DNA of 5,371 nt from a virus. Its lineage: Duplodnaviria > Heunggongvirae > Uroviricota > Caudoviricetes. Shown one piece after another: positions 1 to 5,371 of the stretch; positions within the stretch are counted from its first letter, which is position 1; the number at the start of each line of letters is the position of its first letter. The DNA lies in IMG/VR virus record IMGVR_UViG_2537562194_000023, positions 1 to 5,371 of that record; one strand, written 5' to 3'. The position numbers were made by a program, and so were the translations under genes. The notes under the pieces are model-generated. The model had not been told where the DNA came from and searched no databases. It saw nothing but the letters and a program-made list of their open reading frames with translations.

Positions 1-261
1 CTGAGTTTTTAAGTGACGTAAAACCGTGTTGAGGCCAACGCCCATAATGCGTGCACTGGCGCGACATCCGACGCCATTCATGGCCATATCAATGATTTTC
101 TGGTGCGTACCGGGCTGAGAGGCGGTGTAAGTGAACTGTAGTTGCCATGTTTTACGGCAAGGAGAGCAGAGATAGCGCTGATGTCCGGCAGTGCTTTTGC
201 CGTTACGCACCACGCCTTCAGTAGCGGAGCAGGAAGGACATCTGATGGAAATGGAAGCCAC
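1..261 (-). CDS. insA: IS1 InsA (transposition regulator), GTG start at 261-259, 3' end cut by the window edge
   Basis: Minus-strand translation from the GTG at 261 gives [87 protein letters not shown], which is 87 codons to position 1. This matches recalled IS1 InsA (zinc-finger Cys pairs, helix-turn-helix region). The six-frame track missed it because the start is GTG and there is no stop in the window; the track ORF 78-290(-) is an overlapping alternative frame. Confidence 0.85.
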
Positions 262-293
262 GCAAGCACCTTAAAATCACCATCATACACTAA

Positions 294-316
294 ATCAGTA
301 AGTTGGCAGCATTACC
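294..316 (-). repeat. IS1 terminal inverted repeat (left end, 23 bp)
   Basis: The reverse complement of 294-316 is GGTAATGCTGCCAACTTACTGAT, matching the IS1 IRL consensus except for one base (GGTA vs GGTG). The other inverted repeat is outside the window, so pairing cannot be checked. Confidence 0.85.
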
Positions 317-480
317 GAGATTGTTTTGTCGGAACTGATACGCTGGCGCTAATAGGTAGTAGGGTTCTTATGCTAAACATACAACCTCTTTCTTAATTCT
401 CGAACCTGTTTAGGATTCTGTGTAAATTCAAAATAAACCTGTCTGAACATTCCTAACAAACATCCACCGGACATGACAAC

Positions 481-503
481 AAAAAACCGGAGCCGGACTC
501 CGG
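481..503 (-). terminator. Rho-independent terminator closing the minus-strand tail-fibre/small-ORF unit (weakly bidirectional)
   Basis: A perfect 6-bp GC-rich stem (CCGGAG 487-492 / CTCCGG 498-503) with a 5-nt loop. On the minus strand it is followed by six U (plus A-run 481-486); on the plus strand by four U (504-507). It sits 19 nt downstream of the ORF ending at 522. Confidence 0.6.
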
Positions 504-521
504 TTTTGTGAAGCTGTCGGG

Positions 522-770
522 TTACTTCATCCCGCCAATATTTTCCCACGTCCCGTCAGCACGCAGGATTTGCAGCGGTCTTACCACGCACTGTATCTGC
601 TTTTTATCCGCATCCAGTATCACCACCTGCATGATTACCCTGTCCTGCTCCGGAATAATACCATTCTCATCGGACTCCAGGATGTCTGCCGGCCCCAGTC
701 GCAGTTGTGCTGTAAGCGACTGCACGTGTTCACGGCCATCATGCTTTCCGCAACCACACAGACGCTGCAT
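522..770 (-). CDS. Hypothetical small prophage protein (82 aa) immediately downstream of the tail fibre gene; function unassigned, possibly a tail-fibre accessory
   Basis: ATG at 770-768 to the stop at 522. Codon usage is typical of enterobacteria (CTG, CGT, GGC rich) and the ORF is followed by the terminator at 481-503. The SD is weak (AT-rich leader AAAAAACTT before the ATG). It shows no resemblance I can recognise to lambda Tfa. It lies in the same reading frame as the upstream stf. Confidence 0.45.
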   Translation of the reverse strand: MQRLCGCGKHDGREHVQSLTAQLRLGPADILESDENGIIPEQDRVIMQVVILDADKKQIQCVVRPLQILRADGTWENIGGMK

Positions 771-791
771 AAGTTTTTTAGTATATTCATG

Positions 792-2105
792 TCATTCTCC
801 TGTTCTGCCTGTATCACTGCCCACTTCATTCAGCCCCTTAACATCCTGCCACGGCCCGTCACCAAACCTGACCTGCAAATGCCGAAACAGCCCCTGAACC
901 TGTGTGGCATCTTTGGGGTCAAGAAAGGTCAGTCCGGTGATGAGCGCACCATCTGTATCCGGGAACCAGCCATTGCTGTTTGTCTCAATAATGTTTCCCG
1001 GCCCCAGACGGAACCGTATTTGCGTCTCCCCCGGGTCGCCCTTCGGCCCCTGAGGTCCGGTTGCCCCCACCGGGCCAGCCGCACCTGTTTCTCCTTTCGG
1101 TCCCTGTGGGCCTGCCGGGCCTGCCGCACCGGTATCTCCCTTTGGACCCTGAGGACCTGCATTTCCCGTCAGACCGGTCTCTCCCCGCTCTCCCCTGTCA
1201 CCTTTCGGCCCCTGCGGGACTGCCGGACCAGCATCACCTGCCGGTCCCCGTTCGCCGGTTGCCCCGACAGGGCCGGTGTCACCGCGCTCTCCCTTATCTC
1301 CCTTCGGCCCCTGAGGACCCGCGGGACCCGGTCCCCCCTTTGGCCCGGGAGGCCCCACCACGGTCGGGATTCGGTTTACGGCTTCTTCCGCCGCTATCCT
1401 GCTTTGTTCCGCTGACTGTGCGCTTTCTGCTGACTCCCGGGCTTTTTCTGTTGCGGTCGTTGCATCCCTGGCTGCATTACCGGCTGCACTTTCTGCCGTC
1501 TTTCTTGACAATTCAGCTTCTGCTGCACTTTGTGATGACTCACTGGCTTTTTGAGCGGCCGCAGAGGCCGAGGACGAGGACGCCTCCTCTGACTGCTTTG
1601 CAGCGGCTGCACTTTCTGCCGCCTGCCGGGCTGACTCCGATGCATCCCCTGCTGAAGTGTCAGCATTTGCAGCGTTCTCTTCTGCCTGACTGGCTGATAT
1701 GCCGGCATTCCTCGCTGATGTCTCCGCCTCTCCGGCATTCTTCTTCGCCTCCCCGGCGTGACGCGCTGCTTCTTCCACCATCAGTTCAAAACGACGCAGT
1801 GCCTCCGGCCGGACGTCATCCTCCGACATGGCACCGAGAAAATCATTCAGCGTACCGGGTCGGGAATCTTCATACACGGTGATGGTCCCGGCATGTGACG
1901 GCGGGAAGCCCTCCACCAACAGAATGACGCTGTACTGACCGTACTCAACGTCCATGCTGTAACGACCGGCTTCATCCGGATTTTCAGAGGCCACCGTGTT
2001 CACCACCACCGTGCTGCTGGTCCGTCTGGCTTTCAGTTGAATGGTGCAGTTCTCTACCGGTTTTCCTGTGCCGTCTTTCAGTACACCTGAAATCTTTACT
2101 GCCAT
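792..2105 (-). CDS. stf: Lambda Stf-like side tail fibre protein with a collagen-like (Gly-X-Y) domain
   Basis: The N-terminus [28 protein letters not shown]...[33 protein letters not shown] closely matches the lambda Stf N-terminal domain as recalled. It is followed by an Ala/Ser/Glu-rich low-complexity segment, then about 37 Gly-X-Y triplets ([19 protein letters not shown]...), then an ~76-aa non-repetitive C-terminal domain. I place the start at the ATG 2105-2103 (MAVKIS...), preceded by GTGGGGTG; the track start at the GTG 2111 adds MN and is less likely. Synteny is J-lom-stf as in lambda. This resembles the prophage collagen-like tail fibre class described in pathogenic E. coli. Confidence 0.85.
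1023..1355 (-). repeat. Collagen-like Gly-X-Y triplet repeat coding tract inside stf (GC-rich imperfect tandem repeats, GPQGPKG unit recurring)
   Basis: Protein residues 253-363 have Gly at every third position: 15 triplets, one break (V where G is expected in GPA-VPQ-GPK), then 21 triplets. At DNA level the plus strand shows recurring GGnCCnnnGGnCC-type motifs. It is coding, not a CRISPR array. Confidence 0.85.
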
Positions 2106-2116
2106 ATTCACCCCAC

Positions 2117-2143
2117 AAAAAAGCTCGCCTGAACCGGCGGGCT
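2117..2143 (-). terminator. Possible weak intrinsic terminator between lom and stf
   Basis: On the minus-strand RNA, AGCCCGCC (2143-2136) pairs with GGCGAGCU (2129-2122) with one internal C.A mismatch and a 6-nt loop, followed by UUUUU (plus 2117-2121). It is 26 nt downstream of the lom stop and just upstream of the stf start. Confidence 0.35.
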
Positions 2144-2169
2144 GTCATAACACTGTGTTACCTGGCTAA

Positions 2170-2769
2170 TCAGAACTTATAACCGACACCCACGATGAAA
2201 CCGTCAGTGCGCCAGTCGCCACTGCCGGAGCCTTCATAAGCAATATCAATGGCCACGGATTCGGTCGGGTTAAACTGCACGCCAGCCCCCCACGACAGAG
2301 ACGTGTTGCTGTGGCGACCGTCATCACTTCCGGTCAGCACATCATGCGTTTTCCCCTTGTTGTCAGTCACGCGGAGATAATCCCCGGAGAAAGTCGACAC
2401 ACGGCTGTAAGCCACGCCCGCCATCGCATACGCGCTGAACCATTCATTCACGCGCACAGACGGCCCCGCCATTACGCTGAACCAGCGGTTACGAACGGAA
2501 TCTTCATGCCAGCGGGTATCGCTGTAATGGGTCAGCTGGCGATTCTTGTCTCCTGCATAGCTGAACGACGTCACCATCCCCAGTGTGTCCGTAAACTCAT
2601 AACGGTATTTCACGTTAATCCCGTTCAGTTCATCGCTGCCAGGAACGTTCGTCGAGACATGAAGATACCCCGCGCTCAGCGTGGACTGATGTTCAGACGC
2701 CCATGCAGGCGCACCGGATACGGCCAGACAGATGGCTGCGGACAAAATGGCGGCATAAAGTTTACGCAT
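2170..2769 (-). CDS. lom: Lom outer-membrane protein (Ail/Lom/PagC/OmpX beta-barrel family), lambda lom orthologue
   Basis: The 199-aa product MRKLYAAILSAAICLAVSGAPAWASEHQSTLSAGYLH...GFIVGVGYKF is near-identical to lambda Lom as recalled. It has an N-terminal signal peptide (likely cleaved after AWA), a C-terminal aromatic residue typical of beta-barrel OMPs, and a GAGAGG SD 6 nt before the ATG at 2769. It sits between J and stf as in lambda. Confidence 0.95.
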   Translation of the reverse strand: MRKLYAAILSAAICLAVSGAPAWASEHQSTLSAGYLHVSTNVPGSDELNGINVKYRYEFTDTLGMVTSFSYAGDKNRQLTHYSDTRWHEDSVRNRWFSVMAGPSVRVNEWFSAYAMAGVAYSRVSTFSGDYLRVTDNKGKTHDVLTGSDDGRHSNTSLSWGAGVQFNPTESVAIDIAYEGSGSGDWRTDGFIVGVGYKF

Positions 2770-2793
2770 AATTACCTCTCGCTTTTCTGCAAT

Positions 2794-2817
2794 AAAAAAG
2801 GCGCCATTTCTGGCGCC
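2794..2817 (-). terminator. Rho-independent terminator downstream of the J remnant and upstream of lom
   Basis: On the minus strand, a perfect 7-bp stem GGCGCCA (2817-2811) / TGGCGCC (2806-2800) with loop GAAA is followed by six U (plus A-run 2794-2799). The plus strand has no U-tract after the stem, so it acts on the minus strand only. Confidence 0.65.
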
Positions 2818-2836
2818 CGTATATGGGTTATAAAAT

Positions 2837-3790
2837 TCAGCTGATACTGATACCTGCTGTGGATTTTTTCATCACCACAACCAGCAGATCGCTGATACTG
2901 GTTGTTGGTGTCCAGTTATTCGCTCCTGATGAAGATACGGTGAATGTCAGTGCCAGCGTCCCCTGTCCGGCAGGCATATCTATAACTGAGGAAAATACGC
3001 CCTGAACATCCGTCGTGGACTGATTAAAAATCTCCTGACCATTGCGGGTCACTCTTAACCGGCAGGTTGAATACCAGTATGACTGTTGGTTATTACTGTT
3101 GAAATTCTCATGCTTACCACCGCGGAATAACACTGGCGGTATCATGACCTGCCGGTCAAACTTCTGATCATCACCGATTCTTACCGTGATGGTGCCACTG
3201 GCATAAGTGCTCGTGCGGGGGAAAGACTTGCTGACCGTTTTGACAATATCGCCTTCAATCTGGTTGGCTGACAGTTTCCCCTTAATCTGACAGTTCTCAT
3301 TAATCGTGACGTTGTTGAGCGTCCCTGAGTTCGCATTCACACTGCCACTGATATCCGCATTTTTCGCCGTCAGTCGCCCGTCCGGCGTCAGGGAAAATGC
3401 CGGAGGATTGCCGGATGACGTGATGCTCACCGCAAACAGTCGTTTCAGGAACACGTCGTTCATGAACAGCTGATTCCCCTGCGCCACAAATAACGGCGTG
3501 CTGTTGCCGCTCTCCGGATTTATCATCGCGATACGGTCAGCCAGCAGCAGTATGTTGCTCAGTGGCTGGCCATCAGTATCCTCAATCCCTGCACCAATCC
3601 CGGCCACATAGGGAATGCCGTCTTTCGTTTTTGAACCTTCAGCATGTACAGCGCAGCCAGGTCATCATTTGTGTCCTTCTGCACGCGCTGTATCTGCTGA
3701 ATGGTGGCGCTCTGGTCTTCCTGCGTTTTACTGACCGTCTGTGTGATTTCATTGCGGGTTTCTGTGATGGTGGTCTGCATTTCCGCCATC
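2837..3790 (-). pseudogene. J: Tail tip host-specificity protein J, C-terminal remnant: 5' truncated by IS629 at 3790/3791 and carrying an internal frameshift at an A-run
   Basis: Minus-strand frame A (3790-3559) reads ...[55 protein letters not shown]... and then stops. Frame B (open from 3661 to the stop at 2837) reads ...[22 protein letters not shown]...[24 protein letters not shown]...[17 protein letters not shown], which resembles the lambda J C-terminal receptor-binding region as recalled. The two frames join cleanly if the A5 run (plus T-run 3628-3632) is restored to A6. There is no start codon or RBS for an independent gene. Position is upstream of lom, as in lambda. Confidence 0.75.
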
Positions 3791-3815
3791 TGAACCGCCC
3801 CGGAAATCCTGGAGA
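3791..3815 (+). repeat. IS629 left terminal inverted repeat
   Basis: TGAACCGCCCCGGAAATCCTGGAGA. It pairs with the reverse complement of 5076-5100 (TGAACCGCCCCGGGTTTCCTGGAGA) at 22 of 25 positions. Confidence 0.9.
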
Positions 3816-3844
3816 CTAAACTCCCTGAGAAAGAGGTAAACAGG

Positions 3845-4171
3845 ATGACTAAAAATACTCGTTTTTCCCCCGAAGTCCGTCAGCGGGCGATTCGTATGGT
3901 TCTGGAAAGTCAGGATGAATATGACTCACAGTGGGCGGCAATTTGTTCCATTGCCCCAAAGATTGGCTGTACGCCGGAGACTCTGCGTGTCTGGGTTCGC
4001 CAGCATGAGCGGGATACCGGGGGCGGTGATGGTGGGCTCACCAGCGCTGAACGTCAGCGTCTGAAAGAGCTGGAACGTGAAAATCGTGAACTGCGCCGCA
4101 GTAACGATATCCTTCGCCAGGCTTCCGCTTATTTTGCGAAGGCGGAGTTCGACCGCCTCTGGAAAAAATGA
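3845..4171 (+). CDS. IS629 OrfA (helix-turn-helix DNA-binding/regulatory protein; N-terminal part of the OrfAB transposase)
   Basis: AAGAGG SD 8 nt upstream of the ATG at 3845. The 108-aa product has a helix-turn-helix-like N-terminus and a leucine-zipper-like [21 protein letters not shown] segment typical of IS3-family OrfA. It ends in the A6 run that overlaps the orfB start. Confidence 0.95.
4160..4171 (+). other. Putative programmed -1 ribosomal frameshift window of IS629 (A6 run at the orfA stop/orfB start overlap)
   Basis: The sequence TGG AAA AAA TGA (orfA frame) overlaps ATG ATG (orfB, -1 frame). Tandem Lys codons followed directly by a stop fit the IS3-family mechanism that produces the OrfAB transposase. 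Confidence 0.6.
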
Positions 4172-5058
4172 TGCCACTGCTGGATAAGCTGCGTGAGCAG
4201 TACGGGGTCGGACCGGTATGCAGCGAACTGCATATTGCCCCGTCAACGTATTACCATTGTCAGCAACAGCGACATCATCCGGATAAACGCAGTGCCCGTG
4301 CGCAGCACGACGACTGGCTGAAGAGAGAGATACAGCGCGTATACGATGAAAATCATCAGGTGTACGGTGTGCGTAAAGTCTGGCGTCAGTTGTTACGGGA
4401 AGGAATCAGGGTGGCCAGATGTACAGTGGCACGTCTCATGGCGGTTATGGGACTTGCCGGTGTTCTCCGGGGTAAAAAGGTCCGTACGACCATCAGCCGG
4501 AAAGCCGTTGCCGCAGGCGACCGCGTAAACCGTCAGTTCGTGGCAGAACGACCTGACCAGCTGTGGGTGGCTGATTTTACTTACGTCAGCACATGGCAGG
4601 GCTTCGTCTATGTGGCGTTTATCATTGATGTGTTTGCCGGATACATCGTGGGGTGGCGGGTCTCATCGTCTATGGAAACGACATTCGTGCTGGATGCGCT
4701 GGAGCAGGCGTTGTGGGCCCGTCGTCCGTCTGGCACCATCCATCACAGCGATAAAGGCTCTCAGTATGTGTCACTGGCCTATACGGAGCGACTAAAAGAA
4801 GCCGGATTACTGGCATCAACAGGGAGTACAGGCGACTCGTATGACAACGCGATGGCTGAGAGCATCAATGGTCTTTACAAAGCGGAGGTAATACACCGTA
4901 AGAGCTGGAAAAACCGTGCAGAAGTGGAACTGGCCACACTAACGTGGGTGGACTGGTATAACAATCGACGATTGCTGGGAAGGCTGGGCCATACTCCTCC
5001 GGCAGAAGCAGAAAAAGCTTATTATGCTTCCATCGGAAACGATGATCTGGCAGCCTGA
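4168..5058 (+). CDS. IS629 OrfB (DDE transposase catalytic domain; normally expressed as an OrfAB fusion by -1 frameshifting)
   Basis: The 296-aa product carries the rve/integrase-type DDE core (e.g. ...[31 protein letters not shown]..., ...[11 protein letters not shown]..., ...[18 protein letters not shown]...) in the -1 frame relative to orfA. Its ATG (4168-4170) overlaps the orfA stop (4169-4171). Confidence 0.9.
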
Positions 5059-5075
5059 GTTCACAGATAAAACAC

Positions 5076-5100
5076 TCTCCAGGAAACCCGGGGCGGTTCA
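5076..5100 (-). repeat. IS629 right terminal inverted repeat
   Basis: The reverse complement of 5076-5100 is TGAACCGCCCCGGGTTTCCTGGAGA, matching the left inverted repeat apart from 3 central mismatches. Confidence 0.9.
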
Positions 5101-5371
5101 TTTTAATTGAAAGAGCAATTACCGAACAAAAGACGCTGACTATATACTCAAAACCAAACAACAATTCTGCCAATCAGGTATCATGGCAACACACGGAATT
5201 ACCATGTTTTTGCCTTCTCTGCCCATACAATACGGGCATATACTTCATACTCTATTGTAATATTTCTATCCATGCGCCCCACTCCATTTACCTGTAAATA
5301 ATATTCAAAATATTTATCACAGAAATCGTTTTTGGCCATGAACTGAGCACACTATAAAGTCCGGAACTGAC

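Follow-up and report, generated by a model that had tools for sequence, protein, structure and literature searches.

A probable misjoin through IS629 in a draft contig of Escherichia coli O111:H- JB1-95, and the prophage deletion at the real locus

Introduction

The stretch of DNA analysed here, called the window, is 5371 bp in length and contains the tail end of a lambdoid prophage. An intact IS629 element ends the tail-tip gene J, and the sequence beyond the element changes abruptly in composition. The locus raises the question of whether the IS629 marks a rearrangement in the prophage or whether the two sides of the element were brought together in some other way.

Source of the Window and Comparison Genomes

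The window is the entire draft contig AEZV02000061.1 of E. coli O111:H- JB1-95, from a JCVI assembly that dates to 2011. In the literature, JB1-95 is described only as an O111:H- clinical isolate, and AEZV as its JCVI draft (PMC3359367, Table 1). Both junctions of the window IS629 were searched for in 5426 complete E. coli genomes and were found in only three: 95JB1 (NZ_CP021335.1) and 95NR1, both from the Adelaide outbreak, and 8B, from Idaho. JB1-95 and 95JB1 are taken to be one isolate on the strength of the name, the serotype, and the restriction of these junctions to so few genomes; an explicit equation of the two was not found in the literature on these strains. According to PMC6602927, every IS element and prophage was resolved by the PacBio genomes, and draft contigs of these strains break at such sequences. 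Most of the drafts end at IS elements; the window contig runs through one.

Organization of the Window

The features of the window are listed in Table 1.

Table 1. Features identified in the 5371 bp window.
Feature	Position	Strand	Evidence
Partial IS1 (InsA side); contig ends inside, outer end approximately 316-317	1-316	-	Pfam Zn_ribbon_InsA and HTH_Tnp_IS1
tfa-like tail fibre C-terminal-domain gene	522-790	-	Pfam Phage_fiber_C
Side tail fibre gene stf, 437 aa, collagen-like Gly-X-Y repeats	792-2105	-	ORF
lom, Ail/Lom outer-membrane beta-barrel	2170-2769	-	Pfam Ail_Lom
J' remnant, last 954 nt of the 3477-nt tail-tip gene J	2837-3790	-	Pfam Phage_Tail_Tip and Ig_GpJ_C
ATC, left IS flank, real junction of IS629 copy A	3788-3790		Junction in 3 of 5426 complete genomes
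IS629/IS1203 (IS3 family), intact, 1310 bp	3791-5100	+	Inverted repeats, ORFs, Pfam, RefSeq
IS629 orfA	3845-4171	+	Pfam HTH_Tnp_1
IS629 orfB	4168-5058	+	Pfam rve (DDE)
TTT, right-hand repeat of the copy B 3-bp target duplication; left-hand repeat outside the window	5101-5103		Sequence of 95NR1/95JB1
Right flank, late region of a different lambdoid prophage, up to the contig end	5101-5371	+	100% identity to copy B flank
46-aa conserved phage ORF	5199-5339	-	PHROG 2157, full-length match, E = 2e-37

The IS1 at the left end has a counterpart at the equivalent position of 95NR1 and 95JB1, annotated by RefSeq as "IS1 family transposase, frameshifted". The stf product carries the RefSeq name "prophage tail fiber N-terminal domain-containing protein". 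The J remnant keeps only the C-terminal 318 of the 1158 codons of J. It contains the Phage_Tail_Tip and GpJ C-terminal Ig domains and is followed by lom and stf, as in a lambda-like tail-tip region. Up to the IS boundary it is 98% identical at the nucleotide level to the intact J (annotated gpJ) of O111:H- strain 11128, where the order lom, stf, tfa, and IS1 after J is the same. Truncation of J by IS629, claimed in the initial annotation, was thus borne out. The BLAST alignment to intact J ran 8 nucleotides into the IS (to position 3798). Microhomology between J and the left IS end was considered and rejected; J reads TCATCCGC and the IS reads TGAACCGC, which agree at 6 of 8 positions, and the overrun is a chance extension.

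The element itself has the length of IS629/IS1203 and imperfect terminal inverted repeats. These start with TGAACCGCCCCGG and match at 13 of 13 positions, then at 22 of the first 25. Pfam matches across its ORFs are HTH_Tnp_1, HTH_21, and rve. orfA and orfB are joined by a programmed -1 frameshift, and identical copies are named [quoted passage not shown] by RefSeq. The window IS629 is 100% identical to two copies in 95NR1/95JB1, designated A and B below, and to copies at other loci. There are approximately 30 or more copies per genome, counted as places per record. Because the copies are identical and this numerous, reads inside the element cannot be assigned to one of them.

No 3-bp target duplication surrounds the window IS629, which has ATC on the left and TTT on the right, as was noticed at the outset. 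The other IS629 copies in the retrieved loci have 3-bp duplications in four of four cases (ATG, TTT at copy B, TAT, and AAC), so the absence in the window is informative rather than a matter of chance.

The right flank has a GC content of 36.9% versus 54.6% for positions 317-3790, and no J homology was found in it; the AT-rich character reported earlier is real. The description of this flank as non-coding-like was not upheld, since its 46-aa ORF matches a PHROG family. The two flanks are also not unrelated, as had been supposed. The right flank belongs to a lambdoid late region, lies between an Rz-like lysis gene and PerC/terminase, and has the same orientation as J-lom-stf. It is present in 673 genomes with a median of three copies.

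Two IS629 Copies in the Finished Genomes

In 95JB1, 95NR1, and 8B, the two junctions of the window lie on separate, 100% identical IS629 copies, A and B, approximately 376 kb apart. In 95NR1 they are located at 1.850 Mb and 2.228 Mb on the same strand.

Copy A truncates J in a defective lambdoid prophage whose integration site is ompW. Its right side does not continue into the window flank and instead reads CCCGTTGTG, starting 29 nucleotides into holin of this ompW prophage. The order is J'...ATC, IS, CCC-holin' (29 nt), DUF6645, tRNAs, Q...int. With ATC on one side and CCC on the other, copy A has no target duplication in the finished genomes.

Copy B is a simple IS629 insertion that lies between Rz and PerC in a second prophage. 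In 95NR1/95JB1 it reads ggcaTTT, IS, TTTtaattga, a perfect TTT duplication, and the window from 3791 to 5371 is 100% identical to copy B and its flank over 1581 bp. The initial annotation had proposed locating the right flank in a genome without this IS copy, and the empty site ggcaTTTTaattga was found in O111:H8 strain 7-32 9A. It had also proposed looking for a second IS629 copy to complete the junctions. Copy B is that copy, and it exposed positions 5101-5371 as its own flank.

Quality of the Contig

The contig is demonstrably error-laden and a mosaic of paralogues. T runs at positions 6, 774, and 3628 each lack a single T, a deletion that none of the aligned comparators shows, the Sanger-finished 11128 among them. 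The deletions at 774 and 3628 lie in genes and break ORFs, the former in the tfa-like gene. The latter produces an apparent frameshift in J'; in the finished genomes the T is present and the frame stays open throughout.

The window contains 18 substitutions, of which 12 agree with the ydfJ prophage, a paralogue in 95JB1, and six match none of the four paralogues sampled. The tail region of the copy B prophage was ruled out as the source of the variant patches; the 12 substitutions trace to the ydfJ prophage. One patch from a paralogous prophage spans positions 654-736 of the tfa-like gene. In lom, the substitutions at 2341, 2344, and 2368 come from a paralogue and the one at 2295 is unique; the 131-bp lom segment at 2270-2400 has no match of at least 99% in the 5426 genomes. 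A search of the whole assembly collection found the exact Stf, Lom, and 82-aa Tfa-like proteins in this contig only. The Adelaide and Idaho isolates have identical versions of Stf, Lom, and Tfa.

Origin of the Window Junction

The window is very probably a repeat-induced chimera in which the right junction was misassembled through IS629, judging from the sequence comparisons. The left arm (1-3790) would be the tail end of the ompW prophage with J cut by copy A, and the right arm (5101-5371) would be the right flank of copy B in the second prophage. The assembler would have entered the 1310-bp IS from J' and exited into the flank of the wrong copy. If flanks from two insertions were joined in this manner, the difference between ATC and TTT compares different IS copies. 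The two arms meet within a repeat whose copies do not differ, and 95JB1, 95NR1, and 8B all separate the two flanks. The window resembles repeat-induced chimeric or collapsed draft contigs in several respects: its arms meet in a long, multi-copy, 100% identical repeat, each flank has its own partner at a separate locus in finished genomes of the clone, and the consensus carries homopolymer indels and mixed paralogue alleles. Copy-specific SNPs that could place a crossover inside the IS do not exist; the 1310 bp show no difference among A, B, and the window.

For the junction to be real, flanks that sit on two IS copies would have to have been brought together in the JB1-95 stock. In the finished genomes both junctions share one strand, which rules out an inversion between the copies and leaves a deletion as the only way to the window arrangement. 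Homologous recombination between A and B would delete the interval between them, and as the copies are direct repeats without a mismatch, its product would be exactly J'-ATC, IS, TTT-flank. A deletion between direct repeats is the only real event between A and B that gives this junction, and it would remove tyrS and tus. The interval also holds fumC, manA, rsx genes, and yciC-tonB, among others. tyrS is reportedly essential in E. coli (Keio collection), and a clone with such a deletion should not be viable, which makes this reading extremely improbable. The chance is just as slight that an IS629 event joined J' to unrelated, non-prophage DNA with loss of the rest of the prophage, including its regulatory genes, as first proposed. 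The lack of a target duplication and the sharp fall in GC content at 5101 are in keeping with that proposal; against it, the right flank is prophage late-region DNA with a PHROG ORF and occurs in 673 genomes, and the finished genomes keep Q through int.

A further reading accepts the junction as a smaller deletion in the ompW prophage of the JB1-95 stock, with the order J', IS629, TTT-Rz-lysozyme-holin. 95JB1, 95NR1, and 8B would then be deleted further into holin, forming a nested, one-sided series with a fixed left IS end. As such a series predicts, the left junction is the same in all of these genomes and the right junctions differ. The right flank is also collinear, in the correct orientation and order (J...terminase, PerC, flank, Rz, holin), and the literature records deletions next to IS629 that range from a few nucleotides to over 40 kb and are associated with the IS-excision enhancer (IEE), an enhancer that occurs in O111:H8 (PMC9943667). 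This reading nevertheless requires two prophages to carry IS629 at one identical TTT site and to agree at 271 of 271 flanking nucleotides. The Australian and Idaho isolates share the holin junction, and the outbreak isolate of the same name should share it too. The junction is moreover drawn from an error-laden contig with a mosaic of paralogues. We regard the nested series as very unlikely. A version in which the stock truly has the Rz-side flank, its sister isolates have a longer deletion from the same IS end, and the TTT allele was shared by the two prophages through recombination is a shade less probable still. If true, deletions of different lengths, each anchored on one side by IS629, would form a nested series that arose naturally in a single outbreak clone.

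Deletion in the ompW Prophage

Whatever the origin of the contig, the real locus in the finished genomes is an IS629-bounded deletion inside a defective prophage, without a target duplication. At copy A, an intact IS separates collinear, same-orientation flanks of one prophage, and the genes between them are missing: the rest of holin, lysozyme, Rz, terminase, the genes for head and tail, and the initial two-thirds of J. By comparison with the neighbouring intact prophage, the deletion from holin to mid-J would be about 22 kb in size. The prophage retains Q, the tRNAs, the replication genes, cro/cI-like genes, exo, xis, and int to the right of copy A. The earlier claim that everything except J'-lom-stf had been lost, regulatory genes included, therefore fails. 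The broader claim that IS629 sits at a rearrangement breakpoint is partly correct. It stands for copy A, which lies at an internal prophage deletion, and falls for the ATC/TTT pair and the flank at 5101-5371, which belong to another event.

The copy A deletion is inferred to have arisen by one of two routes. One would be an adjacent deletion anchored at IS629, such as transposase promotes together with IEE. The other would be recombination between two direct IS629 copies within one prophage. None of the 5426 complete genomes shows an ancestral state with IS629 simply inserted in J or in holin, and the J'-ATC/IS and IS/CCC-holin junctions are each confined to the same three. With no intermediate carrying a simple insertion at either end, the data do not fix the order of events or separate adjacent deletion from recombination between IS copies.

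Relation to Known IS629 Events

IS629-bounded deletions of this sort are well known in EHEC. IS629 has been blamed for many deletions, and the IEE-dependent ones adjacent to the IS have the size range given above (PMC9943667). Copy A resembles the prophage deletions and inactivations by IS629/IS1203 in O157, O26, O111, and O103, which involve transposase and IEE, in that an intact IS without a duplication edges a multi-kb internal deletion. The junction of the window differs from these, as it is not such an event. Simple IS629 transposition, which proceeds by copy-out-paste-in and leaves a 3-bp duplication, is represented by copy B, with its TTT and known empty site, and by the copies with ATG, TAT, and AAC. 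Neither the window flanks (ATC/TTT) nor copy A (ATC/CCC) follow this pattern, both being without a duplication. The biology underlying the window is a loss, bounded by IS629, of the module for lysis, head, and tail from the ompW prophage, a routine form of IS629 prophage decay in EHEC.

For the draft sequence, a contig that runs through an IS in an IS-rich EHEC assembly can pair the flanks of two copies and mimic a breakpoint. False frameshifts and paralogue-mixed alleles yield the "unique" Stf, Lom, and Tfa proteins that are now in public collections. The contig crosses a 1.3-kb repeat of approximately 30 copies yet ends in a three-copy prophage repeat, which is odd whether the junction is a misjoin or real.

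Source Contig and Window Content

The window is the entire 5371-bp contig AEZV02000061.1 of GCA_000194355.2, and both of its ends are therefore contig ends, which lie in repeats. AEZV is a JCVI draft of E. coli O111:H- JB1-95 (PMC3359367, Table 1). The features of the window are listed in the table.

Features of the window
Feature	Position	Strand	Remark
IS1, partial	1 to ~316	-	cut off by window end
Tail-fibre C-terminal-domain gene (tfa-like)	522-790	-	
stf	792-2105	-	collagen-like repeats
lom	2170-2769	-	
J'	2837-3790	-	C-terminal 954 nt of tail-tip gene J
IS629/IS1203	3791-5100	+	intact, 1310 bp
IS629 orfA	3845-4171		
IS629 orfB	4168-5058		
Right flank	5101-5371		271 bp, AT-rich

The element is an IS629/IS1203 member, as its length, terminal inverted repeats, and orfA/orfB frameshift architecture all fit. 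The inverted repeats match at 13 of 13 positions and then at 22 of the first 25. The target duplication of this group is absent from the window copy, and the differing flanking triplets in the initial annotation (ATC and TTT) were confirmed. In the loci compared, each of four other IS629 elements has a 3-bp duplication (ATG, TTT, TAT, and AAC), so the lack of one here needs explaining. An IS629 copy with an AAC duplication disrupts the effector gene nleC (95NR1 ~2201259-2202568); its last base is T, where other copies have A.

The right flank has a GC content of 36.9%, compared with 54.6% for window 317-3790. It had been described as non-coding-like and unrelated to the left flank, and neither description holds. 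Among 5426 complete E. coli genomes, 673 have the flank, with a median of three copies each. Its position is always within lambdoid prophages, with an Rz-like lysis gene on one side and PerC/terminase on the other, and it is oriented like J-lom-stf. It contains a 46-amino-acid ORF (MAKNDFCDKYFEYYLQVNG...) at 5199-5339 on the minus strand, which matches PHROG 2157 (unknown function) end to end with E = 2e-37. The sampled hits among the 673 carrier genomes have no RefSeq annotation over this ORF.

Junctions in Finished Genomes

Of 5426 complete genomes, just three carry the left junction (J'...ATC / IS629): 95NR1, 95JB1, and 8B. The first two are PacBio genomes from the 1995 Adelaide O111:H- outbreak (PMC6602927), and 8B was isolated from a human in Idaho. 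All three also have the right junction (IS629 / TTTtaattga...), with 100% identity over 421 bp, but it lies at a different IS629 copy, approximately 376 kb away on the same strand (95NR1 positions 2,228,136 for the right and 1,850,180 for the left). It was the search for a second IS629 completing the junctions, proposed in the initial annotation, that revealed this separation.

The left junction belongs to copy A, the J-truncating IS629 of the prophage at ompW. Its right side reads CCCGTTGTGATT..., which in intact relatives is 29 nt within a class II holin gene, immediately downstream of a DUF6645/esterase gene. The right junction belongs to copy B, in another, otherwise complete-looking lambdoid prophage. 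Copy B reads ggcaTTT / IS / TTTtaattga, and the empty site is known from O111:H8 strain 7-32 9A (ggcaTTTTaattga). With TTT on both sides, copy B is a textbook insertion.

The window is identical to copy B and its flank at 1581 of 1581 positions, and window 1-5100 is 99.6% identical to the copy A locus. The window therefore joins copy A's left half-junction to copy B's right half-junction. The missing target duplication is understood on this basis, as the flanks match those of two different copies.

Origin of the Join

IS629 is 100% identical between copies, and roughly 30 or more are present per genome. An assembly could therefore walk through the element without unique support, and the sequence comparisons make it very probable that the join of J', IS629, and position 5101 is an assembly chimera. 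Copies A and B are direct repeats, so as a real event the fusion could arise only by deletion of the whole interval between them. This interval contains yciC-tonB, tus, fumC, manA, the rsx genes, and tyrS. As tyrS is essential in E. coli, a clone with this deletion should be inviable. Alternatively, the junction could be real if the ompW prophage of JB1-95 has a smaller deletion. In that case two prophages would have to carry IS629 at one and the same TTT site, with identical flanks, and an outbreak isolate of the same name would have to differ from mutually agreeing isolates of two continents. JB1-95 is equated with 95JB1 on the basis of name, serotype, and exclusive sharing of both junctions; a search of the literature on these strains found no explicit statement of it. 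The junction as read from the window is thus most likely an artefact.

Deletion in the ompW Prophage

The initial annotation placed IS629 at a deletion breakpoint. This stands for copy A in the finished genomes, a deletion junction without duplication (ATC/CCC), but not for the ATC/TTT junction of the window, most likely an artefact. The prophage order is ompW' - OspG effector - IS1 - tfa - stf - lom - J' - IS629 - holin' (29 nt) - DUF6645 pseudogene - TerB' - tRNAs - Q - RusA - ... - P - cro/cI-like - exo - xis - int - ompW. The prophage lacks the remainder of the holin, together with lysozyme, Rz, PerC, terminase, the head and tail genes, and ~840 codons from the start of J. By analogy with the neighbouring prophage, the deletion would be approximately 22 kb. 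The prophage keeps its early, regulatory, and integration modules, contrary to the proposed loss of regulatory genes.

The IS1 at the start of the window has a GGTAATG-type end at ~316; in the finished genomes the same IS1 stands between the tail-fibre genes and the OspG-family effector kinase gene. The IS1-tfa-stf-lom order of the window is shared by O111:H- 11128, but its J is intact.

The deletion may have been an IS629-anchored adjacent deletion, or may have arisen by recombination between two direct IS629 copies formerly in J and the holin. The adjacent deletion is supported by reports that IS629 is behind many genomic deletions in EHEC, that IEE-dependent deletions adjoining IS range from a few nucleotides to >40 kb, and that IEE is present in O111:H8 (PMC9943667). 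No genome in an intermediate state was found among the complete genomes searched, and no SNPs distinguish the IS629 copies, so either mechanism would fit. The event belongs to a well-described class, the IS629-associated prophage deletions of EHEC, and neither the element nor the deletion type is new.

Probable Contig Errors and Related Prophages

The non-IS part of the contig was compared with 95JB1 at its copy A locus. Three single-T deletions lie in T runs (window 6, 774, and 3628). The extra T is present in all aligned comparators, including Sanger-finished 11128 and the sampled paralogues covering those positions. The deletion at 774 breaks the tfa frame and truncates the gene; that at 3628 splits J' into ORFs 2837-3607 and 3559-3789. 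As every aligned comparator has the missing T, the apparent J' frameshift is an error, and all three deletions resemble homopolymer errors made in sequencing the draft.

There are also 18 substitutions. Twelve are alleles of the paralogous ydfJ prophage of 95JB1 instead of those of the ompW prophage, in patches at 654-736 (nine) and 2341-2368 (three). The other six (631, 1333, 2125, 2295, 2953, and 3175) match none of four sampled paralogues. The pattern is that of a consensus in which reads from several members of a repeat family were mixed. None of the 5426 complete genomes matches the lom segment 2270-2400 at 99% or more. Because of these differences, the exact Stf, Lom, and Tfa proteins of the window are absent from all other assemblies in the collection; 95NR1, 95JB1, and 8B, by contrast, have the same version of each protein as one another. 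The chief value of the contig is as a warning about IS-spanning drafts and the erroneous "unique" proteins that arise from them.

The stf gene has a long collagen-like Gly-X-Y tract (window 1000-1370, minus strand), which contains its only difference from the finished genomes, position 1333.

At 95JB1 1535166-1536842, within the ydfJ prophage, J' is also 5'-truncated and directly abuts a phage antirepressor gene, with lysozyme and holin genes coming next. The ydfJ prophage thereby shows another internal deletion of the head-tail region, with no IS at the junction. In 95JB1, over the regions 1.84-1.98 Mb and 1.53-1.55 Mb, the gene order is trpCBA-yciGFE-ompW'-prophage-ompW-yciCBA-tonB, then prophages, then ydgI-rstAB-tus-fumC...tyrS. 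Compared with the K-12 map, such an order may reflect a large inversion whose ends lie in or close to the prophages at ydfJ and tonB.
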